Shown: positions 10,639 to 60,834, counted from the stretch's first letter. The stretch is DNA of 64,000 nt from Candidatus Brockarchaeota archaeon (GCA_017601395.1 JAFNIQ010000001.1:16542-80541), one strand, 5' to 3'. A program made the numbers and translations. Notes: generated from the sequence alone by a model not told the origin.

Positions 10639-10743
10639 CAAAACATCTTTCACACCGTTTTCATATTTCTGCTAACTTTTTTTAACGCGATTCAAATGGA
10701 AGGTTTAAAAGCCTCTTTAAAAGCCTCCGTTCGGTAAAAACGG

Positions 10744-11538: not shown

Positions 11539-11540
11539 AA

Positions 11541-13906: not shown

Positions 13907-14051
13907 GAATTAACGGGTGAAAAACAGTAAACATAAGAGTTAAACCTTCCGTGAAGGATGTGGTATCCCTATAAGATGCAAGTCTTTATATACTGCCGGT
14001 TTGTCAGAGAAGGATTTGAAATGATAAAAACTGTTTGGTGCGTCACATTCT

Positions 14052-14309: not shown

Positions 14310-14399
14310 GTATTAGCGTGTGCTACTATGAAGGCATGTAAAACCTCTCAGGGCCTTCCATAATGGATCTGTAACGCTACCCGCCCTAAAACAATACCG

Positions 14400-15853: not shown

Positions 15854-16009
15854 ATGAAATTCGTACCTCTCCAAAAAGGAAGTACACCAGAGCCTGGTAC
15901 AAGGCCGCTCACATGTTGTGGTAGTAATTTCCATTTTGGAACGTATTGCACGCCAGTAAAGGGGCCGACCCAGATTATCAGCGATATTAAGGCGCTTAGG
16001 GAAGACTAA
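15854..16009 (+). CDS. Unannotated 51-aa small ORF, candidate RiPP precursor peptide (MKFVPLQKGSTPEPGTRPLTCCGSNFHFGTYCTPVKGPTQIISDIKALRED)
   Basis: ATG at 15854. The TAA at 16007-16009 overlaps the ATG (16009-16011) of the radical SAM/SPASM gene as TAATG. Three Cys sit in a Gly/Thr/Ser-rich stretch. A TATA-like box lies upstream. The ORF is below the length cutoff of the ORF track. Confidence 0.4.
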   Translation: MKFVPLQKGSTPEPGTRPLTCCGSNFHFGTYCTPVKGPTQIISDIKALRED

Positions 16010-17340
16010 TGAAAGTGAAAGCTTCTAGGTTTAATTTTTTTATACCTTTCTCAGATGGTTATTTAATATACAACACGTTTAATGGTGCACTGGCTTTTAT
16101 TGATGCGGAACTTAAGAACTTAGAGGCCAGCGACTTTCAAAAATTGCCTCCCAATCTTTTAAAAAGTCTCTTAGATCAGGGATTCTTAATCGAGGAGTTC
16201 GTCGATGAATTGCTAATGTACGAGTATTATTTCAACCTAGCAAGATACTTAACAAGTTCTGTAGGCTTTCTTCTATTAACTACGTATGATTGCAACTTTA
16301 ATTGTGTTTATTGTTATGAGAGACCTGTTATTTCCAAAGTTTATATGGATCTTGATGTCGCAAGAAGAACCGCTACTCATATTACCAAATTTACTGATGG
16401 GAAAATGGCTAAACATGTTGAGATAACTTTGTATGGTGGTGAACCCTTGCTGAATCTCAACATAGCTCAGGTAGTGTTAGATGAAGTTTTGAAATGGTGT
16501 CAGAAAAATGGTGTATCGTTGGATATCAATCTCGTAACAAATGGCTCACTTATAACTCCTGAAGTTGTTAATAGTCTTAAAGCATACAATCTTAACTCCG
16601 TTCAAGTGACGATGGATGGTCCAAAGGAAATTCACGATAAAAGAAGACCCTTTCGAAACGGCATGGGTTCTTTTGATGTAATAATGTCAAATGTTCTTAA
16701 TTGTATAGATAGTCTGCCCATAACTATAAGGGTCAATGTTGACAAGGGAAACGTCTCTTATTTCCCTGCTTTTTTGGATTTACTAGACGATTTGGGTCTA
16801 AAAAATAAAGCGGGATTATGGATTGCAATGCTTCATGGATTAGATGACTATTGTAAAACTATGAAATTTAATGATAAAGAAGCAAACGAAATACGTTACA
16901 ATATGTGGAGGCTTGCTCTCAAAAGAGGCTTCAAATTCGGATGGTATCCCTCAAGATTCCATTTATGCGATGCGATGAGGGACAACGCTCAGATAATCGA
17001 TCCTAAGGGCAATATATATAAATGTTGGAGTTTTGTAGGACTTGAAGAGTGTACTGTGGGTAAAATAGGAGAAGGAACTTACAAGCCTTATTTTTATGAA
17101 TTGTTAACTAGGAATCCTATAAGAGACGCAAAATGCAGCAGATGTAATGTACTGCCATACTGTAATGGGGGGTGCCTATATGAAGCTTACTGCCATACTG
17201 GGAATAGATCTAATTTTGTATGCGGTGTTCTTCAGGGAAAGGAAGCGTTAGAGAGCATGCTTACTCTACATGTTATTAGTATGTACAAGGAAAAACTTGT
17301 AAAGAGTGAAGTAAGCGTAGGCAATGAAATCTATGATTAA
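16009..17340 (+). CDS. Radical SAM enzyme with C-terminal SPASM domain (peptide-modifying maturase family; anSME-like)
   Basis: CNFNCVYCYERP (CxxxCxxC) near residue 95. C-terminal …YKCWSF…ECTVGK…CSRCNVLPYCNGGCLYEAY auxiliary-cluster (SPASM) cysteines. Confidence 0.85.
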   Translation: MKVKASRFNFFIPFSDGYLIYNTFNGALAFIDAELKNLEASDFQKLPPNLLKSLLDQGFLIEEFVDELLMYEYYFNLARYLTSSVGFLLLTTYDCNFNCVYCYERPVISKVYMDLDVARRTATHITKFTDGKMAKHVEITLYGGEPLLNLNIAQVVLDEVLKWCQKNGVSLDINLVTNGSLITPEVVNSLKAYNLNSVQVTMDGPKEIHDKRRPFRNGMGSFDVIMSNVLNCIDSLPITIRVNVDKGNVSYFPAFLDLLDDLGLKNKAGLWIAMLHGLDDYCKTMKFNDKEANEIRYNMWRLALKRGFKFGWYPSRFHLCDAMRDNAQIIDPKGNIYKCWSFVGLEECTVGKIGEGTYKPYFYELLTRNPIRDAKCSRCNVLPYCNGGCLYEAYCHTGNRSNFVCGVLQGKEALESMLTLHVISMYKEKLVKSEVSVGNEIYD

Positions 17341-18412
17341 TGCCATTGTTACAGAAGAGCTTACAAGAATTTTCAAAACCTATGTCCTAAAGGGTTACTA
17401 TGAAAGCGGTTGGGAACATGGAGGGGTTTTTCTTTACAATATATGGAAAAGACTTAGAGCTGAGAAGACAATGGTTCAAGCTCTAAAGGGAATTAACCTC
17501 AGAGTTAGAGAGGGAGAGTTCGTTTTCCTCGTAGGTCCGAACGGCTCCGGTAAGACTACGTTGATAAGGATATTAGCAACTTTTCTCCTACCTACCAGCG
17601 GAAAGGCCTTCGTAGCGGGATATGATGTTACGCATCAGAAAAGAGAAGTCTTGAAAAACATTAGTTACATACCCTCTCTTCTCGCAGGGGCTGCTTGGGC
17701 CCATGTAGGGCTTACAGTGGGAGAAAACCTAAAAATAATGGCAAGGCTCTTCGGCTACTCGGAGAAAACATTAGACGAAGCCTTACGGACGTTGGAAATA
17801 GAGGATCTTAAGAATAGAGTCTTCGGATCCCTTTCCACGGGCCAGCAAGCCCGGGTCGTTCTAGCTTTAGGCATGATCAAGAATGCTCCAATCTTCCTTC
17901 TAGATGAGCCAACGTTAGGTCTAAGCCCTGAAGCCGTGCGGATAGTCCTAGATTATTTAAAGTATCTAAATGAAAAGATGAAGGTTACAATTCTTTACGC
18001 CACTCATCACCTTATGGAGGCTCAGAAAATGGCTGATCGAGTGGTCTTCCTGAAAGACGGTACCATATTGGTCGATGGAGATCCAAAAAGCATAATTAGG
18101 AGCGTGGGAATTACAGAAACAATAATATTGGAGATTCATCATGCATACTTCGATATTGGCAAAGTCCTACATGAAATTGAGGACCGCTGTATATTTACCA
18201 ATGCCGAGTTATTGGAATCTGAAACGGGTGAATACGTCGTCAAGCTCGGTGTAAAGGATAGTGGGGAGGTTCTCCCCGAGATAATCCACAAGCTAGTGTC
18301 GAGAGGTTCAAGAATTAAGAATGTGAAAGTGTTGGAACCCTCTTTAGAAGATGCGTTTATGTATTATGCGAGGAGGGGTCCTGGGAGTGCGGAAATACAA
18401 GGAAATAGTTAG
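17324..18412 (+). CDS. ABC transporter ATP-binding protein
   Basis: Walker A GPNGSGKTT, signature LSTGQQARV, Walker B IFLLDEPT. The start overlaps the rSAM gene by 17 nt. Confidence 0.85.
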   Translation: MKSMINAIVTEELTRIFKTYVLKGYYESGWEHGGVFLYNIWKRLRAEKTMVQALKGINLRVREGEFVFLVGPNGSGKTTLIRILATFLLPTSGKAFVAGYDVTHQKREVLKNISYIPSLLAGAAWAHVGLTVGENLKIMARLFGYSEKTLDEALRTLEIEDLKNRVFGSLSTGQQARVVLALGMIKNAPIFLLDEPTLGLSPEAVRIVLDYLKYLNEKMKVTILYATHHLMEAQKMADRVVFLKDGTILVDGDPKSIIRSVGITETIILEIHHAYFDIGKVLHEIEDRCIFTNAELLESETGEYVVKLGVKDSGEVLPEIIHKLVSRGSRIKNVKVLEPSLEDAFMYYARRGPGSAEIQGNS

Positions 18413-19241
18413 GGTCAATCTCCGACATGTTCTCAGCTTCTACAAGGAGGAGGTGAGTGTAACTACTGCTTGGTGGGCTTGGAACATACCGTTTCAGCTT
18501 GCCAGTATCCTAATATCCTTACTCATCTATTACTATTATGCATTAGCGTTTGGAGGCTATAGCCCTCTTTTTGGAGAAAACTTCATGACATTCATAATAG
18601 TGGGGCTCATGATGAACACTTATCTAGATATTTCTATGGATGCTTATTACTCCGCGATCAGCGCGCTCTATATGGGCAAAGAGGGTATAGGTGGACTAGC
18701 TATAAGTAGAATGGACTACCTTAGTCTGGCAGGAATTTCGCCTTATGTATTTATCTTTGCGAGGATCAGCTATTATTACATAACGCAGACTATCGTATTC
18801 CTTTTGTATTTTCTGGCTGGACAGTTTTTCGGCGTTAGTATCCCTTTTTTAGAGAATCTCGGTTTGGTCGTGATAGCCATGATGCTTGGTATAATTGCTT
18901 GCAGTGGCATAGGGCTGATATCGGCTAGCATGTATTGGCTTGCTGGTAGCTATAGGGGTGTTGAACCAATTAGATGGACTATAAGGATGCTTGTACCGCT
19001 TCTCTCCGGGATATTTGTACCTCTTCATGTTTTACCAGAATCGATCAGAGCAATAAGCATATTGCTTCCTCAGACTCATACATTACAAGCAGTCAGAGCA
19101 TCTCTTGCAGGAGCTACCTTATCTCAGATACTTCTGAACTTAGAAGCACTGATAATATTCTCGGTAGTACTCGTACCGGTCGGATTATTACTGCTTAAAT
19201 ACTCACTTAATCTGGAGAGAAAAAGAGGCACGATCTACTAA
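18351..19241 (+). CDS. ABC-2 type transporter permease (6 TM). The true start is probably an internal Met or GTG a few codons downstream.
   Basis: Six hydrophobic helices and an ABC-2-like length. It overlaps the preceding ATPase gene. Confidence 0.7.
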   Translation: MRLCIMRGGVLGVRKYKEIVRVNLRHVLSFYKEEVSVTTAWWAWNIPFQLASILISLLIYYYYALAFGGYSPLFGENFMTFIIVGLMMNTYLDISMDAYYSAISALYMGKEGIGGLAISRMDYLSLAGISPYVFIFARISYYYITQTIVFLLYFLAGQFFGVSIPFLENLGLVVIAMMLGIIACSGIGLISASMYWLAGSYRGVEPIRWTIRMLVPLLSGIFVPLHVLPESIRAISILLPQTHTLQAVRASLAGATLSQILLNLEALIIFSVVLVPVGLLLLKYSLNLERKRGTIY

Positions 19242-21783: not shown

Positions 21784-23055
21784 TTACGACTCAGCGTATT
21801 GCTTGATTCTGATTCGATACGTCAGTAAAGCTAAAGCCAAGAGTATAGCAGTCGAGGAAAATATCTTAACAGAGTCTAGAATCAGGGTCTCGGCAAAAGT
21901 TTCGAACACGAGTATCCTGCGGCTGGTCTCAATACTCCAGGCTGGGGGAAAGATTACAGCCAGCAATCTTACGGGTTGAGGCATCCATTCCAAGGGAAAC
22001 CAGATCCCGGTGGTAAAACTAAGAAGAAGGCCGAGGACGGTACCCATGCCTGAAGCACCTCTCACCGTTTTTGATAACAGTGAGACTAGGGCTCCGATGC
22101 TCATGCTCATCAGGGCTCCGCAGACCATGAAGGCGACAGCTAGAAGGTGTATCGGATTCAATGGGTCTAAAACGATGCGTGCCCCCACAGCTGGAGAGAT
22201 TCCTACAAGTATCAGTATCAATGCGGATATTAGTAGGGTCGTTAATTGAGATAGGAAGCTTCCAACTATAAACTCTCCTTCAGTAAGCGGGGTTGAGAAA
22301 AGCTTCCTAAGAGTCCCCCTCTCCTTCTCGGAGACTATGAGTATCGCGCCGCTGTTAAACCCGAAGTAGAGGAACATCATGCCTATTGCTCCAATCGTAT
22401 ACCAGCCCAGTGTTCTCACACGGTCTTCAAAGAACTCTGGAGATACGTGGTCAATAGTTAAGTCTAATGGTCGCATGATGCCTTGTACAGTAGCGTTAAA
22501 CCACCGTTTCTCCTCCTCTGAGACAGGCAACCATTTGATTATGTTCACTGCTTTTTCAACCCTCTTAAACGAGATTCCTTCAGAGAACCTTTCGAGAAAG
22601 CCTATTATTATTGAGGAAGATATTTGTGCAGACTCCGGGGTTCTTGAACCAACGTATGCGTGAAGCCTTGCTTTCTCAACCGGATTGATTACAGCGTAGC
22701 CTAATCCTTCAGGCACAACTATTACGCCGTCAAGCTCACCTCTCCTCAAAGCCCGTAACGCTTCCTCCTCAGATTGATAGGATTTCACGTTAAACAGCTT
22801 TGAATCGTTATACTCTGCCTCCTCCAAGAACTTAATTAAAGACGAGCCGTTAAGCGGCGTTTGAGAGCTGTCTAAGTTTACAATCCCAAGGTTAAGCACT
22901 ATTGTTCCCCCGTCACCGGTCGGCGGCACGAAAATGTATGCAGTCATGAAGATCCATATCAGCGGCCATGCTACGAGCCAGAAAACAAACGTCTTATCTC
23001 TAATCATCAGCTTTAAATCACGAATGATGAATGAAACCATTGGTTTTATTCTCAT
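21784..23055 (-). CDS. ABC-2 family permease with a large extracytoplasmic loop (YhgE/Pip-like topology)
   Basis: N-terminal TM, an extracytoplasmic domain of about 170 aa, then 5-6 C-terminal TM helices. It is translationally coupled to the upstream ATPase with a 4-nt overlap. Confidence 0.65.
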   Translation of the reverse strand: MRIKPMVSFIIRDLKLMIRDKTFVFWLVAWPLIWIFMTAYIFVPPTGDGGTIVLNLGIVNLDSSQTPLNGSSLIKFLEEAEYNDSKLFNVKSYQSEEEALRALRRGELDGVIVVPEGLGYAVINPVEKARLHAYVGSRTPESAQISSSIIIGFLERFSEGISFKRVEKAVNIIKWLPVSEEEKRWFNATVQGIMRPLDLTIDHVSPEFFEDRVRTLGWYTIGAIGMMFLYFGFNSGAILIVSEKERGTLRKLFSTPLTEGEFIVGSFLSQLTTLLISALILILVGISPAVGARIVLDPLNPIHLLAVAFMVCGALMSMSIGALVSLLSKTVRGASGMGTVLGLLLSFTTGIWFPLEWMPQPVRLLAVIFPPAWSIETSRRILVFETFAETLILDSVKIFSSTAILLALALLTYRIRIKQYAES

Positions 23056-24005
23056 TCCTCCAGCCTCCTTCCGGTTAGCTTTAGAAAAACATCTTCAAGC
23101 GTAGGCTTGACTACGCTTACACTCAACACCCTTACTCCTTTCTCACCGAGGATTAGTATGGTCTTAGGCAGATCCTCGTCGGGGTCGTCAGTATGAACAC
23201 GTACTTCGCCGTTACAACTATAAACGTTTCCCCAACGGCTCTTTAAAACAGCAGAAGCATTCTCGACTTGTTCAGGAACGGGCTTAATCACTAGCACAGC
23301 TGGCGGGGCATAGAGTTTTTTAAGCTCCTCAGCACTGCCCTCCGCGATTAACTTACCCTTGTCTATTATTGCAACCCTGTTTGCAAGTCCTTCTGCCTCG
23401 TCAACAAGATGAGTCGCCATGAGGATGGTAACTCTGTTTGAAACTTTTTTGCGTAACAATTCTAGGACGCTTCTGCGCATAGCCGGGTCTAAAGCTGTAG
23501 TCGGCTCATCAAGTATCAGCAGCTCAGCCTCAATGGCTAGGGACAGTATGATTGAAGCGAGTTTCATCTGCCCCGTTGACAGTTTGGAAGAGAGCTTGGT
23601 TGCCAACTCCTGAACACCCAATTTTTCAAAAAGCCACTTAGCCTCCTGGCGGACAGTATTCCTGTTAAAACCGTATAACGATGCGTAGAAATCAACATTC
23701 TCCATTACTGTTAGCCAAGGATATAGTGGTGGAGTCGCTGGAAGATAGGAGATTTTTAAACGCGTTGACGGATCGAAAGGACTACCCCCAAGAACCCTAA
23801 TGCTTCCAGACGTCGGCTTCATAACGCCAGCTATAATGTTGAACAACGTTGACTTGCCTGCACCATTCGGCCCTATGAAAACGTATACCTCGCTAGGCCT
23901 AACCGTGAAGCTGACCGCGTCCAGCGCGACGACACTGTTATATGATTTAGAAATTCCTTGAGCAGCAACCACTTCCTGCCCCATGATTCTATCACATTGT
24001 TTCAA
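23052..24005 (-). CDS. ABC transporter ATP-binding protein
   Basis: Walker A GPNGAGKSTLFN, signature LSTGQMKLA, Walker B LILDEPT. Confidence 0.85.
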   Translation of the reverse strand: MKQCDRIMGQEVVAAQGISKSYNSVVALDAVSFTVRPSEVYVFIGPNGAGKSTLFNIIAGVMKPTSGSIRVLGGSPFDPSTRLKISYLPATPPLYPWLTVMENVDFYASLYGFNRNTVRQEAKWLFEKLGVQELATKLSSKLSTGQMKLASIILSLAIEAELLILDEPTTALDPAMRRSVLELLRKKVSNRVTILMATHLVDEAEGLANRVAIIDKGKLIAEGSAEELKKLYAPPAVLVIKPVPEQVENASAVLKSRWGNVYSCNGEVRVHTDDPDEDLPKTILILGEKGVRVLSVSVVKPTLEDVFLKLTGRRLEE

Positions 24006-51536: not shown

Positions 51537-52343
51537 CTACGCTAGGGCAAGACCCTCCTTCTTAGCCTTTCTCTCCAAATGGAATATTGCAGCTTTCGCT
51601 AGAAGGCCGAAACCTAGTGTGAAGGCGATTAGCATTCCGATCTCGATTTCCACAGGCCACACGGTGCTGGTTCCCATTATGAAGTGGCGTGAAAGATCAA
51701 TCCCGTGGGTTAGAGGTATTAGGAATGCGATGATTTTCAACGGGTCAGGCATAAACTGGAGGGGTACGAACATTCCCGTGGCTATTTGAAAGAGGAAATT
51801 TAGGATGGACATCACCGCTGAAACATCTTTGAAAAGCAGTATGGCGCTGGACATTATAACACCTATCTGGCATAGGGCTAGGAAGGTTAGGAGTAGCGTG
51901 ATGCAGGTCATTAAGAAAGCAGGTAGAGGTGGAAAACTGCCTAGGAGGATGAATGCTGTCGCAAACATAGGTATTATGCCGAACAATGTTCCAACAACAG
52001 CCTGGGAGACGGATGAGGAAAGCATGTAGACATATCTGGAGACTGGCGAGGCAAACGTATACTCGATCTGCCCCCTAGTTAACTCGTCCCTTATCTCCCA
52101 GGCTCCCCAGGTTGCAGCACCCTGGTAGTTTTGGAAAGCAACCCCGATTAATAGAAATACCGCGTAATTCGTGCTTCCAATCGAGCCGAGTTTAGCAGGG
52201 TCTATTACGAACCCGAATATCATGAGGCCAAGACCCCATATGAAGCTCATTATCAACTCGACCGTGAAATTCAGCTTGTAACGCGTTATCTCTCTTATTC
52301 TCCTCCAGACTGTCATCCTGATCATTGTCAGAATATTGCTCAT
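51537..52343 (-). CDS. ABC-2 type transporter permease
   Basis: Six TM helices. A 4-nt overlap with the upstream ATPase gene. Confidence 0.65.
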   Translation of the reverse strand: MSNILTMIRMTVWRRIREITRYKLNFTVELIMSFIWGLGLMIFGFVIDPAKLGSIGSTNYAVFLLIGVAFQNYQGAATWGAWEIRDELTRGQIEYTFASPVSRYVYMLSSSVSQAVVGTLFGIIPMFATAFILLGSFPPLPAFLMTCITLLLTFLALCQIGVIMSSAILLFKDVSAVMSILNFLFQIATGMFVPLQFMPDPLKIIAFLIPLTHGIDLSRHFIMGTSTVWPVEIEIGMLIAFTLGFGLLAKAAIFHLERKAKKEGLALA

Positions 52344-53350
52344 CCTCCCCCACCCTCAACCATTATTTTAAACGCTTCTTCAAGCGTTAGATTCTCTATC
52401 CTTATTCCAGGCCTCTGTCCTTTGTCTTTTAAAAGCTTGATCACAACCGGCAGAGTTTCATAAGCATCCTTACAGTAAATCCTAAGATCAGAGTTCTCCC
52501 GTTGAACGCTGATAACTCCCTCGACATGGGTCAGCTGCTTCACGAGTTCTTCGTGAACATTATTCCCGTTTATCTGAATGACCTCGGTTCTAGTGACTGA
52601 TTCCCTCATTTTCTCCGGTGCACCGTCGAATATAATCTTGCCCTTGTTCATCATGATAACCCTATCGCCTATCTCTTCAGCCTCCTTCATGTTGTGGGTT
52701 GTGACGATTATTGCTGCCTCTCTATTCTGAGCGTAATCCTTCAAATATTTTCTAACTTTAGAGGCAGTAAGGGGATCAAGAGATTTAGAAGGCTCATCCA
52801 TGAACACGATCCTCGGCCGGGTTATTAGAGACCTCATTATTACGAAAGTCTGCTTCTGTCCTCCTGAAAGAGCAATGAAATACTGGTCCAGGCAATCTTT
52901 AAAATCGAACTCCCTAGCCATCTCCTCAATCCTCTCGTGAGCCTCAGACCTGTGTAACCCGTGGAAAGCAGTGGCGAAGAAAATCAGGTTCTCCCTAGCG
53001 GTCAACCTGAAGAAAGCGGATCTCTCACTATCTTGGCCAGCGTAACCTATTATTCTCCTAACCCTGTCGGCCTGAGAAACCACGTCGTAGCCGCCGACCC
53101 ATGCTTGTCCCTCGTCTGGAAACAGGAGGGTGCTCAATATCTTTACTAAAGTAGTCTTGCCGGCTCCATTAGGCCCGAGAAGACAGACTATTTCCCCCTG
53201 TCTGACACTGAAGCTGACGCCTTGAAGCGCAACCGTCTGCTTTCCACCGGACCTATATGTCTTGCGAAGACCCGTAGCCTGAACCAGGGTTCTCGAAACC
53301 GGTTTTTCCATGACGGTTGTCTCGGCTGCGGCTCTTGCTTTAACACTCAT
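52340..53350 (-). CDS. ABC transporter ATP-binding protein
   Basis: Walker A GPNGAGKTTLVK, signature LSGGQKQT, Walker B VFMDEPS. Confidence 0.85.
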   Translation of the reverse strand: MSVKARAAAETTVMEKPVSRTLVQATGLRKTYRSGGKQTVALQGVSFSVRQGEIVCLLGPNGAGKTTLVKILSTLLFPDEGQAWVGGYDVVSQADRVRRIIGYAGQDSERSAFFRLTARENLIFFATAFHGLHRSEAHERIEEMAREFDFKDCLDQYFIALSGGQKQTFVIMRSLITRPRIVFMDEPSKSLDPLTASKVRKYLKDYAQNREAAIIVTTHNMKEAEEIGDRVIMMNKGKIIFDGAPEKMRESVTRTEVIQINGNNVHEELVKQLTHVEGVISVQRENSDLRIYCKDAYETLPVVIKLLKDKGQRPGIRIENLTLEEAFKIMVEGGGG

Positions 53351-53580
53351 GTTTTCATCACCAGACCAATAACACTGTTTTTAAAAATGACTCACGAAAT
53401 GTGAATTCTGAATGTAATTGTCTGAAGAGAGTCGCCCAATGCCTTCCAGGGTTGTTTCCCGCCATTTCAGAAATGCTTCTCTATGAATGCTTTTAAGAAT
53501 TTTGCAACTTTTTACCCAAGTATTTGCCCACCCGGCGCGTGTTGCATTATGAATGACGATTATCTACCTCGATCTAACTT

Positions 53581-54987
53581 TTACCTTTCTTCCACGAGTG
53601 TTAACTCTCCGTCCTTTTTAACCACCACGAATAGCGCTGCCAGAGCTGTGCATGTCGATAGTGCTCCCATGTATCGCGTAAGGCCAGTTAAATCAACTGT
53701 CTGAGACGCTACTTTGAACACGTAGTTGATCGGCTCGCTCTCCACAATCCGGTATAGCTGTCCATATAAGACGATGCTTACTGCCCGCGTTGTCAGGTTT
53801 CCCTCGCCACTCCTCAGGAACCCGTCGGAATCATAGGTTCCAGTAAAATAATGTATAGTCGTATTCACGTTGACAACGCTGACTGTCGACCCCCCTCTCA
53901 CCATTACTGGGAGTCTAATGCTCTTACTGCTTAAAATTATCTGCCTGTTAGAATTGGCTGCATTGTAAAGCAATCCCGCCGTGTTCAACCTGTTTAGCAA
54001 TATTCTCGTAGTGTCCAAAGATACGCTGGCAATCTGAGACTCCAGGTCTGGCAGCTGTATGCCCACGTAGTCAACGTAGGGGGCTCCTTCACACGTATAT
54101 TGAATTGTTGTTGACTTTACAGTGCCTTGAACAGCTAACCCTGAGGAGGCGTAGGCTGCTCCAGCTAAAAGCAGAACCATGAAAACTGTGGTAATGGCTT
54201 TGGAGAAAAAGCCTAGTCCCCTCGTCTTCAGGTTGATAGGCATCAAGTAGGGGAGGAGGCTGTATGCCCGCAGCATTCTAAACATGGCAATCCTCCTTTT
54301 ATCGACAATGAGCGGAAGCAACGCTATTCCCATTACGAATCCCCCTGCGTGAGCAAAAACTGCTGTGCTTCCCGCGGTCTTGGTGAAGCCGTAAATCACC
54401 TGTGTTGCAAACCAGAATATTATGTAGTAGGCGGCCTTGATTCTGAAAAACATTGGGAAGAGTATGAAGCTCCAGCCTACTATGAGATATGTACCCGGGT
54501 AAAATATGAGGTACGCCCCCAGGATTCCGCTGATCGCTCCAGACGCGCCGATTGCAGGAACCGTGTATGCTGAAAAACCACCTAGAAAGCTGAACGCGGT
54601 GTGGAATATGGATGCTGCAACTCCTGCCGTCAAGTATAAAAGTAGGAATCTTAACTTGCCTAGGATGCTTTCAACAGCCCTGCCGAAAACATATAGGAAA
54701 TACATGTTGAAGAGTATGTGGAAGAAATCGGCATGGAGAAACATGGATGTAAAAACCCTATACCACTGGAAGGGGGTTTCTATAAGCGAAGGGATGAAAC
54801 CACCTATGCTCACCCAGTATTCACTGGTCTCTATGAAGAAACTCTCGTAGGAGGTTAAGACGTATGTTAAAACATTAACCATTATTATGATTATTGTAAC
54901 CGTCGGCTTGGTTTTAAAACCAGCTGGACTACCAATCGGTATGCCGAAACTCGTTCTAAATCCGCCGGAAGCCATTTCCCTACTCAT
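53581..54987 (-). CDS. Rhomboid-family intramembrane serine protease fused to an extra TM and a C-terminal extracytoplasmic domain of about 200 aa
   Basis: Catalytic GASGAISG (GxSG) and FAHAGGF His motif, plus an HxxxN-type segment (FLHADFFHILFNM). The C-terminal half is non-rhomboid and soluble-like. Confidence 0.75.
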   Translation of the reverse strand: MSREMASGGFRTSFGIPIGSPAGFKTKPTVTIIIIMVNVLTYVLTSYESFFIETSEYWVSIGGFIPSLIETPFQWYRVFTSMFLHADFFHILFNMYFLYVFGRAVESILGKLRFLLLYLTAGVAASIFHTAFSFLGGFSAYTVPAIGASGAISGILGAYLIFYPGTYLIVGWSFILFPMFFRIKAAYYIIFWFATQVIYGFTKTAGSTAVFAHAGGFVMGIALLPLIVDKRRIAMFRMLRAYSLLPYLMPINLKTRGLGFFSKAITTVFMVLLLAGAAYASSGLAVQGTVKSTTIQYTCEGAPYVDYVGIQLPDLESQIASVSLDTTRILLNRLNTAGLLYNAANSNRQIILSSKSIRLPVMVRGGSTVSVVNVNTTIHYFTGTYDSDGFLRSGEGNLTTRAVSIVLYGQLYRIVESEPINYVFKVASQTVDLTGLTRYMGALSTCTALAALFVVVKKDGELTLVEER

Positions 54988-56257
54988 ACCTCAGTGCATC
55001 GACAGGTTTAAGTTTTGAGGCTTTCCAAGCAGGGTAGAGAGCGAACACCATGGTGACCGTCAGGCCGAAGACGAGGGCTCCAAGTATAACTGTTGGAGTT
55101 AGGACCGGTGTTATCGTGATGCCGTTTGATACTCCAGCCTGGTTTCCCTGCCGTATGATGCCCACTCTATCCGAGGAGCCGAATATCCTTAAAACAATTT
55201 GCGCTAAGCTCCATCCTGCACCGATCCCGATTAAAGTCCCTAGCAAACCTATTATGGCTGCCTCGCACAAGAATATCAGTAGCACCTGGTGGTTCTTCAT
55301 GCCTAAAGCCTTCAGTATGCCTATTTCCCTGGTTCGCTCCATTACAGATACGATCATAATGTTCATTATGCCTATTCCTGCTACAAGAAGCGAGATTGCC
55401 GCGATCCCCGCTAGGAAGAGCTCAACCGTTGAGAATACGCTTGAAATAATGTTTAAGATGGCTGTTGAAGAAGTGACTGATACACGGCCTCCTAAGGCTT
55501 CCTTTATGGCCTTCGCCGCACTGTCGATTGTAGCCCTATCGTCATTCCTCAACTTAACGATTATCATCTCGCAGGTTTCAGTTCCGAAGAAGCTTTGAGC
55601 CTTCGAAATCGGAATATATATCCTGTTGTCTGAGGGGCCACCGATGGTGAATCCCCCGATCTCACGGAGAACAGCCGCAACTCTACCTACATACGTTTCG
55701 TTTCTAAGTGGTCTTGCGGTCGTGTTGGTCCAAAGTATCTCTAACGTGTCGCCAGTCCTGCAGAGAATTGTTCCATTACCCCAAGGGTTGCTCACCTGCT
55801 TTCCTATTACGATAGCATCGTCTTCAGGGTTTAACGGGATTTCCCCCTCCTCGGCTGCGAACGCGCTGCTGTAAATCTCCCTGTAGGCGGCAAAATCGAC
55901 GCCGGTTACCGTTACTCGACGCGTCTGCCCGTTTGGCATTCTTATATAGCATATTCTTTGGATCACTGCTATTGAGGCAGTAACGTTGTCCATCTCTTTT
56001 ATTGTTTGAGCATCCTTAACCAGCAAGTTGAACTCGTTTACGCCACCCAAACCCCCGCCTGCGGTGACGATTAGAGTGTCTGTTGCAAAACCTCTCTGAA
56101 GCTGTGCGGATATTGCTACTTGAAGCCCCTGAGTTATTGAAAGCAGTGCCACTATTGCGGCTATTCCAATGACTACGCCTAGCGTCGTTAAACCTGCTCT
56201 GAGTTTACGCAGCTTTATCGCGCTGAAAGCATATGAAAACACGTCTATTATCCTCAT
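54980..56257 (-). CDS. ABC transporter permease, FtsX/MacB-type (N-terminal TM, periplasmic-type core domain, 3 C-terminal TM)
   Basis: N-terminal TM (LTTLGVVIGIAAIVALLSI), an extracytoplasmic domain of about 230 aa, and FtsX helices (…GIGIMNIMIVSVMERTREIGILKALG…). Confidence 0.75.
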   Translation of the reverse strand: MRIIDVFSYAFSAIKLRKLRAGLTTLGVVIGIAAIVALLSITQGLQVAISAQLQRGFATDTLIVTAGGGLGGVNEFNLLVKDAQTIKEMDNVTASIAVIQRICYIRMPNGQTRRVTVTGVDFAAYREIYSSAFAAEEGEIPLNPEDDAIVIGKQVSNPWGNGTILCRTGDTLEILWTNTTARPLRNETYVGRVAAVLREIGGFTIGGPSDNRIYIPISKAQSFFGTETCEMIIVKLRNDDRATIDSAAKAIKEALGGRVSVTSSTAILNIISSVFSTVELFLAGIAAISLLVAGIGIMNIMIVSVMERTREIGILKALGMKNHQVLLIFLCEAAIIGLLGTLIGIGAGWSLAQIVLRIFGSSDRVGIIRQGNQAGVSNGITITPVLTPTVILGALVFGLTVTMVFALYPAWKASKLKPVDALRYE

Positions 56258-56258
56258 T

Positions 56259-56945
56259 TCAATTCACCGTCTCCCTGACAATCATGCCGTCAAGCATGTA
56301 CACTATTCTCTTAGCTTCCGTAGCCAGCTGCTGATCATGGGTAACCATTATTATTGTTACACCCTTATCCTCGTTAAGCCTTTTTACGAGCCTTATTATT
56401 TCGTAAGCGTTTTTAGAATCTATGTTTCCAGTGGGTTCATCCATAAGCAAGAATCTCGGGTTGTTGGCTAGGGCTCTGGCAATCGCGACGCGTTGCTGCT
56501 CACCCCCGCTGAGCTCCGTCGGCTTATGATTCATCCTGCTTGCTAAACCAACCATTTGCAAGAGTTCCTCAGCCCGTTTTCTCCTCTCGCCCTTGCTTAA
56601 GCCGGCTATCGACATGGGTAGTTCAACGTTCTCCCTTGCTGTGAACCTTGGAATAAGGTTGAAGAATTGGAAGACAAACCCTATTTTCATCCTTAAATCC
56701 GCAAGCTGGTTATCGTTCAGGGCTGACACATCAATGTTTTCGATGAAAAGCTTTCCCCCCGTAGGCTTGTCTAAAGCTCCTATCAGGTTTAGAAGAGTCG
56801 ACTTTCCGCTTCCCGAGGGCCCTAGTACTGAGAGAAACTCGCCCTCCTTCACTTCAAGGTTTACTTCCCGAAGAGCCTCAACAGGAATCTTGCCCTGCAT
56901 GTAGGTTTTCCTAAGATCAACAGTTTTAATGATGGTCTTAGCCAT
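56259..56945 (-). CDS. ABC transporter ATP-binding protein (MacB/LolD-type)
   Basis: Walker [13 protein letters not shown], signature [15 protein letters not shown], Walker [11 protein letters not shown] 1-nt gap to the FtsX-type permease gene. Confidence 0.85.
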
Positions 56946-56960
56946 TTCTCCAACACCATC

Positions 56961-57920
56961 CTACTTAGACAGGTATCTCCAGGAAAGCACTATTCCTATT
57001 GAAGAAAGCACGGTGGCGAAGAAACCTAGGTACATAAAGTCAGTGATAAGCTTAGAAACGTCTAAAGTCAGGATTGTCAACTGTCTTAAAGCGTCTGTCA
57101 GATAGCTAAGCGGGTTTACATAAGCCACTGCCTGCAACCAGTCCGGCATTAAAGTGATTGGTAATAAGGTGTTGCTTGCAAACATCAGCGGCATAGTGAT
57201 TAAGCTTATGAATTGCATTGGCCTCTCCAACTTAGTTGATCTTAAAGAGAATGCTAGGAAAACCGATGAAAGCCCTACGCTGAGTAGGAATATTGCAGCG
57301 TAAACCCCAAATATGTTAATCAGGGTGAAGCTTGGGCTCAACTGCAACCCTAGTACTGTTGCGAGAGTCAGGATTATCGTGGCCTGAAGCATCGCTCTTA
57401 AAGTCGCGTTAAGAACCTTCGAAAAGATTATGGCCCCGCGGGGCACAGGCGTGCTCAAAACTTTATCTAGGAACCCTAGACGCCTATCCCAAACTATAGA
57501 CATTCCGCTGAACATAGTCGTGGTCATAACTATCATTGAAATCATGCCGATGGACATGTAGCTGAAGTAATCCGTTACTCCGAAAACATTCCTCATAACG
57601 TTAGCACCAATATCTGAAACCGTCTGCTGGATTATCTGGGAAACCATTGTGCCGCTAACATATATCACTCCGTTAGCCGGAGGAATCACGTAGTTTCCCG
57701 GTATCGGAATTTTCTCCGGAACCTCTATGTTGCCCAGGTTGCTTGCTGAGAACATTGCACCCAGGTTCATCGACTTCCCTAGAAGCCCCATCCAGATTAA
57801 AGGCTGGATTACGAGCATTAGAAGCATTATGGGGTCGTTTAACCATTTTTTAAGCTCCCTGACCGTTAAAGCCCACAGGCCACGGAGAAGGCTCGGATGA
57901 TACTCGTTCACTCTGCTCAT
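56961..57920 (-). CDS. ABC-2 type transporter permease
   Basis: Six TM helices. A 4-nt overlap with the upstream ATPase gene. Confidence 0.65.
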   Translation of the reverse strand: MSRVNEYHPSLLRGLWALTVRELKKWLNDPIMLLMLVIQPLIWMGLLGKSMNLGAMFSASNLGNIEVPEKIPIPGNYVIPPANGVIYVSGTMVSQIIQQTVSDIGANVMRNVFGVTDYFSYMSIGMISMIVMTTTMFSGMSIVWDRRLGFLDKVLSTPVPRGAIIFSKVLNATLRAMLQATIILTLATVLGLQLSPSFTLINIFGVYAAIFLLSVGLSSVFLAFSLRSTKLERPMQFISLITMPLMFASNTLLPITLMPDWLQAVAYVNPLSYLTDALRQLTILTLDVSKLITDFMYLGFFATVLSSIGIVLSWRYLSK

Positions 57921-58921
57921 CTTGCCCTCGCCCTCCTGATGGTAATCCTCTGGCTTCGAAAAGCCTCTTTAGACTCCTCCGTGTCTCGCATAGACCTGCC
58001 GGTGTATTCTAGGTAAACCTCGTTTAAAGTTGGTTCTGTAAGCGAAAGCCTGGTCACAGTATAGCCGTTCCTTCTGAGAGCCTCGATTATCAGAGGAGCA
58101 GTTTCCTCCCCCGACTCCACCTTAATCCTGTAGGAACCGTTTTCGTTTCTAACCTCCTTAACGTTTTCAACGCTCCGGATTATGCTACTGATGTCAACAT
58201 CCTCCTTTATGCTTATCGTTATGATGTCGCCGCCTAAACTATGCTTCAATTCTTCAGGGTCTCCAGTTACGATGATTTTCCCGTAGTCGATTATTGCTAT
58301 ACGGTCGCACAGGGTGTCAGCCTCCTCCAAGTAGTGCGTCGTCATGAAAATAGTCATGTCATATTCCTCTTTCAAACGTTTAATGTAGTTCCATGTTGCA
58401 GCCCTAGTTTGGACGTCTAAACCTAGCGTTGGCTCGTCTAGGAAAAGAACCCTCGGCCGGTTTATCAGGCCACTTGCAAGCTCGAGTCTTCGCCTCATCC
58501 CTCCGGAATAGGTTTCAACCTTCTTATCTTTGAAGCTGGTGAGTTCAACGAGCTCCAGCAGCTCAACAGCCCTCTTCTTCGAGACTTCTCGTGGAATGCC
58601 GTAGAGGTCTGCACATAGAATGATGTTCTCGTAGCCTGTTAAATCCTCGTCTGCCGTGTACTCTTGTGGAACAACGCCTATAACCTTCCTAACCTCGTTA
58701 GCCTGCTTCACAACGTCGTATCCTAGAATTGAGGCTGTACCTTCTGTCGGCCTTAAAACAGTTATCAGCATATTTATGGTGGTTGTCTTACCGGCGCCAT
58801 TAGGACCGAGGAAACCGAAGATTTCACCGTGTTTAACGCTGAAGCTCACATGGTCGACTGCAACCAGATTCTTGTTGAAAACCTTAGTAAGGCCTCTAGC
58901 AACTATGACTTCCTCAGACAC
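57917..58921 (-). CDS. ABC transporter ATP-binding protein (DrrA-like)
   Basis: Walker A GPNGAGKTTTIN, signature YSGGMRRRLELA, Walker B LFLDEPTLG. Confidence 0.85.
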   Translation of the reverse strand: MSEEVIVARGLTKVFNKNLVAVDHVSFSVKHGEIFGFLGPNGAGKTTTINMLITVLRPTEGTASILGYDVVKQANEVRKVIGVVPQEYTADEDLTGYENIILCADLYGIPREVSKKRAVELLELVELTSFKDKKVETYSGGMRRRLELASGLINRPRVLFLDEPTLGLDVQTRAATWNYIKRLKEEYDMTIFMTTHYLEEADTLCDRIAIIDYGKIIVTGDPEELKHSLGGDIITISIKEDVDISSIIRSVENVKEVRNENGSYRIKVESGEETAPLIIEALRRNGYTVTRLSLTEPTLNEVYLEYTGRSMRDTEESKEAFRSQRITIRRARAR

Positions 58922-58928
58922 TCTGAAT

Positions 58929-59465
58929 CTACCCCCTAATCCTCTTGTTTAACTCTTCTATTTTTCCTGCAGCTTCCTCAAGCACCCTGCCTACTTCTGC
59001 AAGATCCTCTTCAGTCGCCCTGCCTCTTGAAAGAATCATGAATTCCCTGAAGGCGGCGAAAAGACGTTTAATAGGATCATGAAGCCCCCCAAGTCTATCC
59101 TCTGGAAACCTGCCGACGAAAGGAGGCGGTGGAAGTAGGAGAGGGAAGGAAACCATTCTTTCGACAAGCCTTTCCCTTATCTTACCCTTCTCCTCAAGGA
59201 GTTTTCTACCCTTGTCAGTCAACTCGTAGCGTTTAACCCCTGTCTCATCCCTTGGAAGAGCCTTTATGAATCCTTTTTCATGCAGCCATGTGAGCAGGGG
59301 GTAGATTGAGCCTGGGCTCGGTCTCCAAGCCCCGTGGCTTTCCTCCTCAATCCTATCCATTATTTCAGAGCCGGACATGGGCTTCTCACTCAGCTTTTCT
59401 AGAACCAAGTATCTTAGAAGACCCTTTGGCGCGTAAGCCATGTGCCTCATCCAGTGCCTAAACAT
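58929..59465 (-). CDS. PadR-family transcriptional regulator
   Basis: Winged-HTH block …GSEIMDRIEEESHGAWRPSPGSIYPLLTWLHEKGFIKA… typical of PadR. It is the first gene of the 8-gene minus-strand operon. Confidence 0.75.
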   Translation of the reverse strand: MFRHWMRHMAYAPKGLLRYLVLEKLSEKPMSGSEIMDRIEEESHGAWRPSPGSIYPLLTWLHEKGFIKALPRDETGVKRYELTDKGRKLLEEKGKIRERLVERMVSFPLLLPPPPFVGRFPEDRLGGLHDPIKRLFAAFREFMILSRGRATEEDLAEVGRVLEEAAGKIEELNKRIRG

Positions 59466-59571
59466 GTCGCTGTCGATATCGATAACGATATATAAACTTT
59501 ACTGTTTTTTCCAAATTTCTTACGAGTAGGCTCACGCTAAAGATATAAACCCTTAAAAACAAATAGTCGCC

Positions 59572-60834
59572 ATGCTCGTTAAGATACCTTTCGGAAAGGG
59601 CTTTGAAGAGTGCGAGGTTGAGGATTCCAGGATCCATGCTTATCTCGAGCCGTCTTGGCCCACGCCTGGTAACCCTGATTTTTTCATTGAAAACGCTTTA
59701 TCAAATCCAATAGGGTCTAAAAGCCTTGATGAGCTCGCCGAGAAGGCGGGCAGAATACTAATTATTACTAGTGATAACACTAGGCCCGTTCCGAGTAAAA
59801 CTACTCTTCCAAGGCTTATCGCAAAAATGAAGAAGGCGTCACCACAGGCTTCTATACGGCTGCTGGTGGCTACCGGGCTACACGAATGGTCTCCCAGTGG
59901 AAGCGAGTTGAAAGAGAAGTTCGGTCAGGCGCTGGACTATTTAGATGAGTTTATTATTCACTCGGCTAAAAACATTGGTTCGCTGGTTAACCTTGGATCG
60001 TTGTCAACCGGCAACAGGCTTTACGTAAACACTCTTTTAAAAGAGGCTGACCTAGTGGTTTCCGAGGGATATATTGAGGGCCACTTTTTCGCAGGCTTCA
60101 CCGGGGGGCCGAAGAGTATTCTCCCCGGCGTTTCAGGGGTTGAGACTATAATGAACAATCACTCTCCGGGAAACATTGATCACCCGAACGCCAGGTGCGG
60201 TGTTGCTGAGGGAAACCCTATATACGAGGAGATGCTGGAGGCAGCAAACATGGCAAAACTCCGCTTCATTCTGAACGTCGTGTTAGACGGTAGGAAGCGG
60301 ATGCTTTCAGCCTTCGCAGGAGACCCGCTTGAAGCACATAGAAGTGGCCGTGTCTTCACTTTAAAATACTGTGGTGTGAAACCAGTCCCAGGCGATATAG
60401 TAATAACTTCAAACGGCGGTTATCCTTTAGACCGAAACCTCTACCAGCTTGTTAAAGGTATTTCAAACGGTGCCCTGACGGCTAGGGAGGACGGTGTAAT
60501 CGTGGCGTGCGGCGAATGCGTAGACGGGGTTGGGCACCAAGGGTTCTACGAGATGCTTGCCTCCTCAAGCAGCCCAGGCGAGTTTCTAAGGAGACTTAGG
60601 TCTGGAGAAATATGGAGGGAGGCACAATGGGAGGCCCAGGTTTTGGCGAGAGTCTTAGAGAAGTTTCGCGTGATAGTTGTCTCAAGAGGCGTGGATTCGA
60701 AAACAGTTGAATCCATGCATATGATGCATGCGAAAAGCCTGAAAGAGGGTTTGGAAATCGCTCTTAGCCTCAAGCCTCTGGGCAGGATAACTCTTCTCCC
60801 CGACGGCCCTTCTACAATACCTCTTCCGCAATAA
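59572..60834 (+). CDS. larA: LarA-like nickel-pincer-cofactor-dependent lactate racemase family protein (DUF2088)
   Basis: …EGHFFAGFTGGPKSILPG… (the Lys that tethers the cofactor) and …NNHSPGNIDHPNARCGVAEGNPIYEEM… (second catalytic His region). Length 420 aa. Confidence 0.7.
   Translation: MLVKIPFGKGFEECEVEDSRIHAYLEPSWPTPGNPDFFIENALSNPIGSKSLDELAEKAGRILIITSDNTRPVPSKTTLPRLIAKMKKASPQASIRLLVATGLHEWSPSGSELKEKFGQALDYLDEFIIHSAKNIGSLVNLGSLSTGNRLYVNTLLKEADLVVSEGYIEGHFFAGFTGGPKSILPGVSGVETIMNNHSPGNIDHPNARCGVAEGNPIYEEMLEAANMAKLRFILNVVLDGRKRMLSAFAGDPLEAHRSGRVFTLKYCGVKPVPGDIVITSNGGYPLDRNLYQLVKGISNGALTAREDGVIVACGECVDGVGHQGFYEMLASSSSPGEFLRRLRSGEIWREAQWEAQVLARVLEKFRVIVVSRGVDSKTVESMHMMHAKSLKEGLEIALSLKPLGRITLLPDGPSTIPLPQ

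Follow-up and report, generated by a model that had tools for sequence, protein, structure and literature searches.

The eight minus-strand genes analysed here appear to form two adjacent transcription units. The first, of six genes in this genome, would be a self-repressed, inducible operon for efflux and membrane homeostasis, headed by a PadR-family regulator and belonging to a module found throughout the Bathyarchaeia; the second would be a separately expressed ABC-2 exporter beside it. We put the probability of this joint explanation at roughly 0.55. The window, as used below, is the whole 64-kb stretch of Candidatus Brockarchaeota DNA that was analysed.

Gene content and organisation of the block

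All eight ORFs of the preliminary description were recovered at the same positions (Table 1), and every family assignment in the block passed its Pfam gathering cut-off. From padR to the last permease the intergenic distances are +7, -4, +15, +1, -8, +230 and -4 nt, which agrees with the close spacing (-8 to +15 nt) and the 230-nt gap reported before. Gene order and spacing also bear out a PadR regulator at the head of closely packed ABC exporter genes. The genes between padR and the rhomboid gene have GGAGG-like Shine-Dalgarno motifs and are spaced by no more than 15 nt. Three exporter pairs had been described as three architectures; the pairs stand, but the architectures are two (ABC-2 twice, MacB/FtsX once). 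The window holds five ABC exporter pairs, two of them outside the block (17324-19241 and 21784-24005), which makes an extra adjoining ABC-2 pair less remarkable.

The block had been taken for a single eight-gene operon. However, the last pair follows its 230-nt spacer with a TATA-like box of its own, lacks the PadR operator and is confined to the closest relatives. Intergenic TATA-like AT runs lie upstream of two cluster genes only, padR and the seventh gene. This layout argues for two adjacent transcription units rather than one. A clear oligo-T terminator was not found downstream of the rhomboid gene in the window sequence, and read-through into unit 2 is therefore possible. When the block genes were screened with PADLOC for known anti-phage defence systems, no system-specific components were identified: the ATPases showed generic ABC-ATPase similarity, the FtsX permease gave a generic LolE-TM match, and PadR, both ABC-2 permeases and the rhomboid had no matches.

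Table 1. Features of the eight-gene block and its two putative transcription units.
Feature	Position	Strand	Description
Unit 1 (putative)	59496 to 53581	-	padR TATA box through rhomboid gene, six genes
TATA box of padR promoter, TTTATATA	59489-59496	-	archaeal; purine-rich AAAG before it
Candidate PadR operator, TATCGTTATCGATATCGACAGCGACA	59465-59490	strand-neutral	TATC-N6-GATATC-N6-GATA, 26 bp
padR	58929-59465	-	PadR-family regulator, 178 aa
DrrA-type ABC ATPase	57917-58921	-	334 aa, with DrrA1-3_C domain
ABC-2 permease	56961-57920	-	319 aa
MacB/LolD-type ABC ATPase	56259-56945	-	228 aa, PF00005
MacB-type (type VII) permease	54980-56257	-	425 aa, MacB_PCD and FtsX
Rhomboid intramembrane serine protease fusion	53581-54987	-	468 aa
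Six-TM rhomboid core	54262-54903	-	part of rhomboid fusion
Rhomboid TM7	54145-54210	-	topology model
Rhomboid β-rich ectodomain	53692-54141	-	family-specific, predicted extracytoplasmic
Rhomboid TM8 and short cytoplasmic tail	53584-53691	-	topology model
230-nt spacer	53351-53580	-	without PadR operator
Unit 2 (putative)	53388 to 51537	-	TATA-like box and second ABC-2 pair
TATA-like box of unit 2, ATTTTTAAAAA	53378-53388	-	conserved in L001 and L002
Second DrrA-like ABC ATPase	52340-53350	-	336 aa, PF00005
Second ABC-2 permease	51537-52343	-	268 aa, PF12698 and PF01061

A conserved candidate operator at the padR promoter

TATA-like boxes occupy the equivalent place in the padR promoters of related loci. 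The intergenic region upstream of padR, singled out earlier as a place to look for PadR binding, does contain a strongly conserved candidate operator, which extends between the TATA box and the padR start codon, up to the A of the ATG. Two 14-bp dyads (TATC-N6-GATA) overlap within it and have the central GATATC in common, and the operator's first 24 bases have a single perfect match within the window. The 26-bp motif was found at 18/18 padR promoters examined, with 0-1 mismatches in its 14 fixed bases; no other occurrence with up to one mismatch was found in the 357 kb searched. It has been kept although the PadR orthologues are 44-49% identical, with the wHTH conserved, and the surrounding DNA differs. 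The padR mRNA is apparently leaderless.

PadR itself matches PF03551 over residues 21-92 (62.6 bits, cut-off 27). It is of subfamily-1 size and would be a two-domain protein, with approximately 75 residues after the wHTH; members of this subfamily are 19-22 kDa and have two domains, with a separate C-terminal domain for dimerisation (PMC5728393). Similarity to Bacillus subtilis PadR (5x11, PMC5728393) is weak (E = 1e-4), yet the two are alike in size class and in having a wHTH, followed here by a putative C-terminal domain, and of the three signature residues that contact DNA the PadR of the window retains two, the equivalents of Tyr42 (SIYPLL) and Lys67 (VKRY). The equivalent of Tyr20 is Ser in all orthologues across the Bathyarchaeia clade. 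B. subtilis PadR binds a palindromic operator, and the candidate operator here is also palindromic; however, the B. subtilis target is padC, whereas the target here would be an exporter operon.

PadR-family repressors leave DNA upon ligand binding and govern detoxification and ABC efflux genes (PMC3506622, PMC4534193, PMC5728393). In Lactococcus lactis the gene of one such repressor, LmrR, adjoins the ABC exporter genes that it controls, lmrCD, and LmrR also autoregulates by binding a dyad site at its own promoter (PMC4534193). The block shares this adjacency, and the dyad site in the padR promoter would likewise make PadR autoregulated. There are several differences. LmrR is a single-domain protein of subfamily 2, whereas the PadR here, at 178 aa, probably has two domains; LmrCD is a type-I/IV heterodimeric exporter, whereas the block encodes ABC-2 and MacB types; and the candidate operator, with TATC-N6-GATA repeated at 12-bp spacing, differs from the LmrR site. 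Unlike LmrR-LmrCD, moreover, the block has an archaeal promoter with a TATA box and includes a rhomboid protease.

Conservation across the Bathyarchaeia

Bathyarchaeia are a class of sediment and hot-spring archaea. The order PadR-ATPase-ABC2-[MacB pair]-rhomboid was found in about 19 of 25 loci from this class, a count made up of 14 of 16 genome loci and five further loci, among them the contig-truncated L129, in which PadR was not seen. Such recurrence makes the core arrangement more than chance. The genes that flank the cluster differ, giving at least four or five contexts: with larA and GH4, with pyrH and NUDIX, with DUF1847 and either SWEET or AdoMet decarboxylase, and with HSP20, rSAM and UbiA. 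Orthologues of the operon proteins are 79-96% identical in close relatives; across the Bathyarchaeia loci identity is 80-86% for the ATPase, 65-77% for the ABC-2 permease and 52-57% for the rhomboid. To judge from these loci, the module is a conserved, chromosomal and class-wide feature of the Bathyarchaeia, with a core of PadR-ATPase-ABC2 followed by the rhomboid.

The exporters of unit 1

The first ATPase matches PF00005 and PF13732 and passes the TIGR01188 drrA cut-off (393.5 bits against 312.45). Its permease matches PF01061 (101 bits), carries an insert of approximately 60 aa after TM1 and starts 4 nt before the ATPase stop. The pair thus resembles DrrAB, having an ATPase at drrA subfamily level with the DrrA C-terminal domain and a translationally coupled ABC-2 permease. 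However, the permease falls below the drrB cut-off (TIGR01247, 127.6 bits against 223.05; the other ABC-2 permease scores 42.9), the block has no antibiotic biosynthesis context, and the pair is chromosomal and class-wide. The best 120 homologues of the unit 1 permease are all at least 70% identical and come from Bathyarchaeia or Thermoproteota. Nothing close to it was found in the PDB, where a profile search matched an ABCG protein alone (E = 0.0065). The very high conservation of this pair would also fit housekeeping export rather than xenobiotic efflux.

In the second pair, the permease matches PF12704 (78.3 bits, residues 22-253) and PF02687 (87.6 bits, residues 285-418), with the MacB periplasmic core between TM1 and TM2 and the FtsX domain at the C-terminus, as in MacB. 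Its nearest PDB sequences are 5xu1 (an S. pneumoniae ABC permease), MacB, YtrF and LolC/E/F. The best NCBIfam models for the ATPase are LolD, DarD, MacB and FtsE, all below their cut-offs. A four-TM FtsX-type permease likens the pair to MacB, LolCDE, S. pneumoniae Spr0694-0695 and B. subtilis YtrEF, and the large extracytoplasmic MacB core and the separate LolD/MacB-like ATPase are those of type VII systems. However, the pair does not reach the equivalog cut-offs for LolCE, LolD or MacB (LolD TIGR02211, 248.2 against 307.75; LolC/E TIGR02212, 108.1 against 362.45), and the block has no MacA, TolC or LolA partner, because archaea lack an outer membrane. The pair is present in 12 of approximately 20 related clusters, and 3' remnants of the FtsX gene persist in L006 and L015. 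By this count it is an optional extra to the core, often lost and dispensable in about 40% of related clusters.

The rhomboid fusion and its place in the proposed operon

The rhomboid protein has the PF01694 domain with its catalytic dyad, Ser (GxSG, TM4) and His (TM6); the active-site residues are invariant among the relatives compared, and the protease is predicted to be catalytically competent. The topology model has 6+1 TM helices, then the ectodomain, then one more TM, and the charge distribution fits an external ectodomain. This domain is predicted to fold as a curved antiparallel β-sheet with two helices, and has no detectable relatives outside its own family. GlpG- and YqgP-type rhomboids and the 7-TM iRhoms differ from this layout, in which a β-domain of approximately 150 aa and an eighth TM follow TM7. 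The protein is neither a GlpG nor a rhombosortase equivalog (TIGR04239, 24.9 against 250; TIGR03902, 32.3 against 84). In the close relative L001 an ACG stands in place of the first ATG of the window's rhomboid gene, and the -8 overlap may therefore really be a +4 gap; the conserved start is probably Met5, at 54975.

Whether the rhomboid belongs to the functional unit can be argued either way. In most other Bathyarchaeia it is preceded by a conserved TATA-like box, AAATTATATAG, in a gap of 50-70 nt, and is thus independently expressible there. Members of its family occur without ABC genes in L008, L009 and L128, as well as in L081 and L082, where the rhomboid is about 39% identical, and the rhomboid evolves faster than the transporters. 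It is therefore possible, if doubtful, that the rhomboid is a long-standing downstream neighbour, an independent housekeeping gene which joined the transcript in one lineage, and that PadR-ATPase-ABC2(-MacB pair) is the functional unit. However, adjacency and orientation are kept across all those flanking contexts. Moreover, the lineage of the window has lost the rhomboid's own spacer and promoter, leaving the 4-nt gap or 8-nt overlap with a Shine-Dalgarno motif, a usual sign of selection for co-expression. A functional link between the rhomboid and the exporters is plausible.

A probable second, lineage-specific exporter unit

Among the related loci, orthologues of the unit 2 pair were found in L001 and L002 only; in L129, from a related Brockarchaeota, other genes separate the rhomboid from the same GH4 neighbour. 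The tttttaaaaa box reported earlier is present in the spacer, 27 nt upstream of the ATG at 53350. Mean column identity of the spacer among the window, L001 and L002 is 81%, with an almost invariant block at 53489-53530; neither an RNA structure signal (z = +0.40) nor an Rfam match was found in it. The second ATPase scores below the TIGR01188 cut-off (240.1 bits against 312.45), and its permease gene overlaps it by 4 nt. A further AT run upstream of the eighth gene sits inside the coding sequence of the seventh. The two ABC-2 pairs are distant paralogues (36% identity between ATPases, 24% between permeases). Unit 2 would appear to be a lineage-specific ABC-2 exporter added beside unit 1 with a promoter of its own.

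Proposed function and alternatives

Inducible efflux, together with homeostasis of the membrane or envelope, is the most likely role of the module. The analysis itself shows the gene content, its conservation, the operator motif and promoter-like elements, the catalytic residues and the topology model. That PadR binds, that expression is inducible, and which ligand class and substrates are involved is inferred, as is any physical tie between rhomboid and exporters. Transcription would start a few bases before the padR ATG, from the TATA box, and would thus give a leaderless mRNA. A PadR dimer, bound at the dyads between TATA box and start codon, would block recruitment of RNA polymerase, and the operon would therefore repress itself until PadR is freed by a ligand, for which a membrane-active compound of hydrophobic or aromatic character is most likely. 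Derepression would yield the DrrAB-like exporter, a MacB-type mechanotransmission ABC system working on the membrane's outer face, and the rhomboid, with its extracytoplasmic β-domain flanked by two additional TM helices. Under the same stress the rhomboid would process or remove membrane proteins.

Housekeeping surface biogenesis seems an unlikely role. Here the ABC-2 pair would export a lipid-, glycan- or cofactor-type envelope component, the rhomboid would mature surface proteins and PadR would give feedback control. The unusual conservation of permease and ATPase across the class, the ABCG profile match and the housekeeping genes at the flanks all fit, and exporters of glycans and lipids are known within the ABC-2 family (Wzm/Wzt, TagGH, ABCG/ABCA). 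Haloarchaeal rhomboids have been suggested to act in surface-protein maturation, and deletion of one alters motility and glycosylation (PMC11985538). However, inducible stress or efflux operons, and not constitutive biogenesis pathways, typically have an auto-repressed regulator as first gene and its operator over the start site, and genes for glycosyltransferases or lipid synthesis are not linked with any consistency in the loci examined.

More speculatively, and with rather little probability, rhomboid and exporters could form one machine for membrane-anchored surface proteins, induced through PadR under membrane stress. The rhomboid would clip a TM or lipid anchor, the ectodomain, a curved β half-barrel with a weak LolA/LolB-like resemblance, would hold the hydrophobic product, and the MacB/LolCDE-like and ABC-2 systems would extract or expel the fragments. 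In a variant, the C-terminal TM8, of type I and with small or Pro residues conserved close to its outer end, would be cleaved in cis and free the ectodomain. With such a machine, archaea would have a counterpart of EcsAB-RasP or LolCDE-LolA. In Bacillus and Staphylococcus the ABC transporter EcsAB is required for intramembrane proteolysis (PMC2996298), and this functional tie offers a possible model for the gene linkage. However, RasP is a site-2 metalloprotease, EcsB belongs to another permease family, and the EcsAB-RasP genes do not share an operon; Pfam showed no homology to them among the block proteins, and the likeness is one of possible working, not membership.

The preliminary description had suggested that the block provides self-immunity or export for a radical-SAM-modified antimicrobial peptide encoded in the island at 15.5-19.4 kb. 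Bacterial ABC-2 and MacB-type transporters do act in bacteriocin immunity or export, an rSAM gene lies in the same window (its SPASM domain named by an NCBI source label only), and there is weak, sub-threshold similarity to lantibiotic-protection, bacteriocin-export, darobactin-export and SagH models. All immunity-family scores are, however, far under their cut-offs (lantibiotic immunity ATPase TIGR03740, 135.5 against 309.75; SagH permease NF038293, 36.2 and 19.5 against 450). The island lies 32 kb away with its own ABC ATPase and ABC-2 permease, has a lower GC (0.39) than the rest of the window (about 0.47), and no PadR operator was found in front of its cassette in a search of the window. 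The expected co-occurrence fails, as the cassette is strain-specific: six syntenic relatives lack it, and on their contigs no island separates the same pair of nagA-like and MFS genes. Apart from itself, the rSAM protein has no homologue above 51% identity, and its homologues are in scattered, unrelated taxa. The operon, in contrast, has relatives whose proteins are 79-91% identical, is class-wide and is set among housekeeping genes, and as far as the data show its orthologues occur in genomes without a peptide cassette, which the preliminary description itself had held to count against this idea. We consider it very improbable, and a false lead is removed: in all likelihood the cluster does not serve the nearby island as an immunity system.

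To our knowledge, Bathyarchaeia are among the most abundant uncultured sediment archaea, and their gene regulation and envelope biology are almost uncharted. PadR and TATC-N6-GATATC-N6-GATA make a precisely defined candidate regulator-operator pair that is testable in vitro without culturing. The inducer of a class-wide exporter module could reveal a chemical stress that Bathyarchaeia sense, phenolic or lignin-derived compounds being, in our view, an obvious candidate. As far as we know, few natural substrates or partners of prokaryotic rhomboids have been established, so that a conserved genetic partner gives a useful starting point; in this module, a rhomboid protease that carries a new extracytoplasmic domain is linked genetically to ABC exporters.

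Gene organisation and exporter types

The ORF listing placed all eight minus-strand genes at exactly the coordinates of the preliminary description, and every family assignment passed the Pfam gathering score (see table). Successive genes, from padR to the eighth, are spaced by +7, -4, +15, +1, -8, +230 and -4 nt. The three exporter pairs had been read as three different architectures, but only two are present: one pair is of the MacB type, and the other two, both of the ABC-2 type, are only distantly related paralogs of each other (ATPases 36% and permeases 24% identical). The first ATPase passes the drrA subfamily cut-off and its ABC-2 permease fails that for drrB. Against the PDB, a single-sequence search with the ABC-2 permease found nothing and a profile search gave only one faint ABCG match. 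The MacB-type pair has type VII architecture, yet scores under the LolCDE and MacB equivalog cut-offs.

Genes of the cluster, with amino acid identity to related loci of the L003 type. No flanking stretch of the distant loci overlaps the window, which leaves no shared housekeeping genes from which to judge baseline divergence.
Feature	Position	Strand	Basis	Identity to L003-type loci
PadR	58929-59465	minus	ORF listing, Pfam	44-49%
ABC ATPase (first)	57917-58921	minus	ORF listing, Pfam	80-86%
ABC-2 permease (first)	56961-57920	minus	ORF listing, Pfam	65-77%
ABC ATPase (MacB-type pair)	56259-56945	minus	ORF listing, Pfam	76-82%
MacB_PCD+FtsX permease	54980-56257	minus	ORF listing, Pfam	60-75%
Rhomboid, 468 aa	53581-54987	minus	ORF listing, Pfam	52-57%
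ABC ATPase (seventh gene)	52340-53350	minus	ORF listing, Pfam	
ABC-2 permease (eighth gene)	51537-52343	minus	ORF listing, Pfam	

In total, the window holds five ABC exporter pairs, and the host genome is rich in such systems, unusually so in those of the ABC-2 type. The fifth pair (21784-24005, minus strand) combines a DrrA-type ATPase carrying a DrrA1-3_C domain with a 423-aa ABC-2 permease, and is kept in the related contig L089. Rfam and tRNA scans over the window were both empty, whilst a bacterial sigma-70 and terminator scan was uninformative for an archaeon and was disregarded. An anti-phage defence role was rejected, as a PADLOC scan gave generic ATPase matches only.

A candidate PadR operator at the padR promoter

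The encoded PadR has the size of subfamily 1 (178 aa). Alignment with Bacillus subtilis PadR showed that the equivalents of the DNA-contacting Tyr42 and Lys67 are kept, whilst the position of Tyr20 is occupied by Ser throughout the clade, which is consistent with an operator unlike those of bacterial PadR proteins. Upstream of padR lies an archaeal TATA box, TTTATATA (59489-59496), directly followed by TATCGTTATCGATATCGACAGCGACA, whose end is the A of the padR ATG. The latter follows the pattern TATC-N6-GATATC-N6-GAYA, i.e. two overlapping 14-bp dyads placed 12 bp apart. In all 18 loci for which that DNA was available, the motif follows a TATA-like box and precedes the padR ATG, at most one of its 14 fixed bases being mismatched; it was found nowhere else in the window and loci (357 kb). 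The intergenic DNA around it is not conserved between lineages, and the motif is therefore a selected site. This conserved dyad is the obvious candidate for the PadR operator. Three loci carry a third repeat with the same GATATC-spaced dyads and 12-bp periodicity (L007 5398-5435, L011 5407-5444 and L130 3381-3418), which suggests cooperative binding by a variable number of PadR dimers. Judging from its position over the start site, PadR bound here would block polymerase recruitment. Only 23 nt separate the padR TATA box from the ATG, leaving no room for a 5′ leader.

In the window and its two closest relatives (L001 and L002) only, a gene for a LarA-type lactate racemase (59572-60834, plus strand) is divergent from padR. 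It has its own TATA-like element some 25-35 nt 5′ of its ATG, the PadR operator lies about 80 nt away, and larA is probably not under PadR control.

Internal signals point to two transcription units

The eight genes had been presented as one operon; they probably form two units, the first running from padR to the rhomboid and the second comprising the seventh and eighth genes. Within the block, only padR and the seventh gene have a TATA-like AT run that is both intergenic and suitably distant. The run of the seventh gene is the AT box previously claimed for the 230-nt gap, which is indeed present (ATTTTTAAAAA, 53378-53388) 27 nt 5′ of the ATG at 53350. The AT run upstream of the eighth gene falls inside the coding sequence of the seventh. 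The internal genes have GGAGG-like Shine-Dalgarno motifs 5′ of their starts in place of TATA-like runs; in archaea, the first cistron is usually leaderless and internal cistrons are Shine-Dalgarno-led.

The three closest genomes share the 230-nt spacer at 81% conservation. A motif search found no PadR operator in it, inspection of the three-genome alignment revealed no conserved small ORF, and a riboswitch or sRNA was rejected since RNA folding gave no structure signal. A near-invariant 42-nt block, TGGGCAAATACTTGGGTAAAAAGTTGCAAAATTCTTAAAAGC (53489-53530, minus strand), is common to the window, L001 and L002 about 140-180 nt 5′ of the seventh gene. It too is without RNA structure signal or conserved ORF, and may be a regulator binding site or a second promoter.

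Most other Bathyarchaeia have a conserved AAATTATATAG box within a gap of 50-70 nt 5′ of the rhomboid, from which the gene could be expressed alone. The window, L001 and L002 no longer have this gap. As L001 has ACG at the position of the window's first ATG, Met5 (54975), 4 nt past the FtsX stop, is probably the real start.

Conservation across Bathyarchaeia

Nearly all homologs of the rhomboid and of the first ABC-2 permease derived from MAGs of Bathyarchaeia, Brockarchaeota or Thermoproteota. The eight proteins were mapped against 16 full-length family loci from species-representative genomes, 14 of which share PadR-ATPase-ABC2-[MacB ATPase-FtsX]-rhomboid in the same order and orientation. 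Protein look-ups added five loci with the same arrangement, except that in the Brockarchaeota locus L129 the padR region is beyond the contig end. The flanking genes vary between loci: larA and GH4 in the window's lineage; in most loci, pyrH/MBL upstream and NUDIX with HerA-NurA downstream; DUF1847 with nitroreductase upstream and SWEET or AdoMet decarboxylase downstream; and HSP20 with rSAM, UbiA and GT4. Both the operon and its linkage to a family-specific rhomboid are retained across Bathyarchaeia.

Of about 20 clusters, 12 have the MacB-type pair. Two loci without it retain the last FtsX codons (...PVEALRYE*) just 5′ of the rhomboid promoter (L006 ~2600-2700 and L015 ~9890-9990), and these relics indicate deletion, i.e. 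repeated secondary loss of this exporter. The third pair, formed by the seventh and eighth genes, occurs only in L001 and L002, and in L129 different genes separate the rhomboid from that same GH4 neighbour; the pair is therefore a lineage-specific addition. An ABC pair adjacent to the L127 rhomboid was rejected as its counterpart, being an unrelated paralog only 26-39% identical to either pair.

The family rhomboid lacks upstream ABC genes in L008, L009, L127 and L128, as do the distant members in L081 and L082 (~39% identity). In L127 (116-3998), genes for an MtaB-like methyltransferase, a B12-binding corrinoid protein and a RACo activase adjoin the stand-alone rhomboid, a methylotrophy cassette of the type reported for Brockarchaeota and Bathyarchaeia. 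In locus L132, PadR is encoded twice in tandem (110 and 190 aa; 4898-5930) ahead of the ABC-2 pair. Its rhomboid is followed (9545-15229) by genes for a radical-SAM protein, a UbiA prenyltransferase, a GT4 glycosyltransferase and an rSAM/SPASM protein, a possible hint of a lipid or glycan context.

The rhomboid and its ectodomain

All rhomboid catalytic motifs are present and invariant across 46 homologs. The AlphaFold model (pLDDT 80) comprises a six-TM core, a positively charged loop and TM7, then a β-rich domain (residues 283-432), TM8 and a short charged tail. The model places the β-domain outside the cell, with which conserved N-x-T sequons in the alignment agree. A fold search with the whole model returned rhomboid/iRhom matches and helical noise only, and the ectodomain was then modelled separately. 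What is known of the biology of archaeal rhomboids comes from Haloferax alone, in which mutants are affected in motility and glycosylation (PMC11985538).

No support for a link between the operon and the radical-SAM island

The operon had been suggested to provide self-immunity to a candidate peptide encoded by the radical-SAM island (16009-19241, plus strand). The island is a compact cassette of a radical-SAM gene (SPASM according to the NCBI source label) and, behind it, an ABC ATPase and an ABC-2 permease of its own. It has a GC content of 0.39 against ~0.47 elsewhere, and is flanked by genes for a nagA-like amidohydrolase and an MFS protein. These two genes also occur in six related metagenome contigs (L083, L084, L086-L089) at 80-87% identity but only 1.2 kb apart and with no cassette, compared to 3.8 kb in the window. 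Moreover, no homolog other than itself exceeds 51% identity to the rSAM protein, whose 167 homologs are scattered over unrelated taxa, whereas the operon proteins occur class-wide and have relatives at 79-96%. The island therefore appears to be a strain-specific insertion that carries an exporter of its own. The operon is independent of it, the expected co-occurrence does not hold, and peptide self-immunity is unsupported.

A probable PadR-controlled exporter operon linked to a rhomboid

The suggestion of efflux behind PadR is supported by the PadR-headed exporter genes and their conserved candidate operator, and the reading with the best support is an inducible exporter operon that PadR autorepresses. 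Bacteria offer known cases of PadR-controlled efflux, e.g. LmrR-LmrCD (PMC4534193; family overview in PMC3506622). A functional connection between rhomboid and exporter is favoured by a link kept in several genomic contexts, and by the fact that in this lineage the rhomboid no longer has a promoter to itself. That it has an independent promoter elsewhere, and that some family members stand alone, speaks for a loose connection. In Firmicutes, the ABC transporter EcsAB is required for intramembrane proteolysis by RasP (PMC2996298), a mechanistic analogy rather than homology. Our literature search found no description of a PadR-ABC-rhomboid cluster or link, nor of an archaeal PadR/ABC-2 system. 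All parts of the cluster belong to known families; what sets the cluster apart is their conserved combination, the defined operator and the new rhomboid ectodomain.
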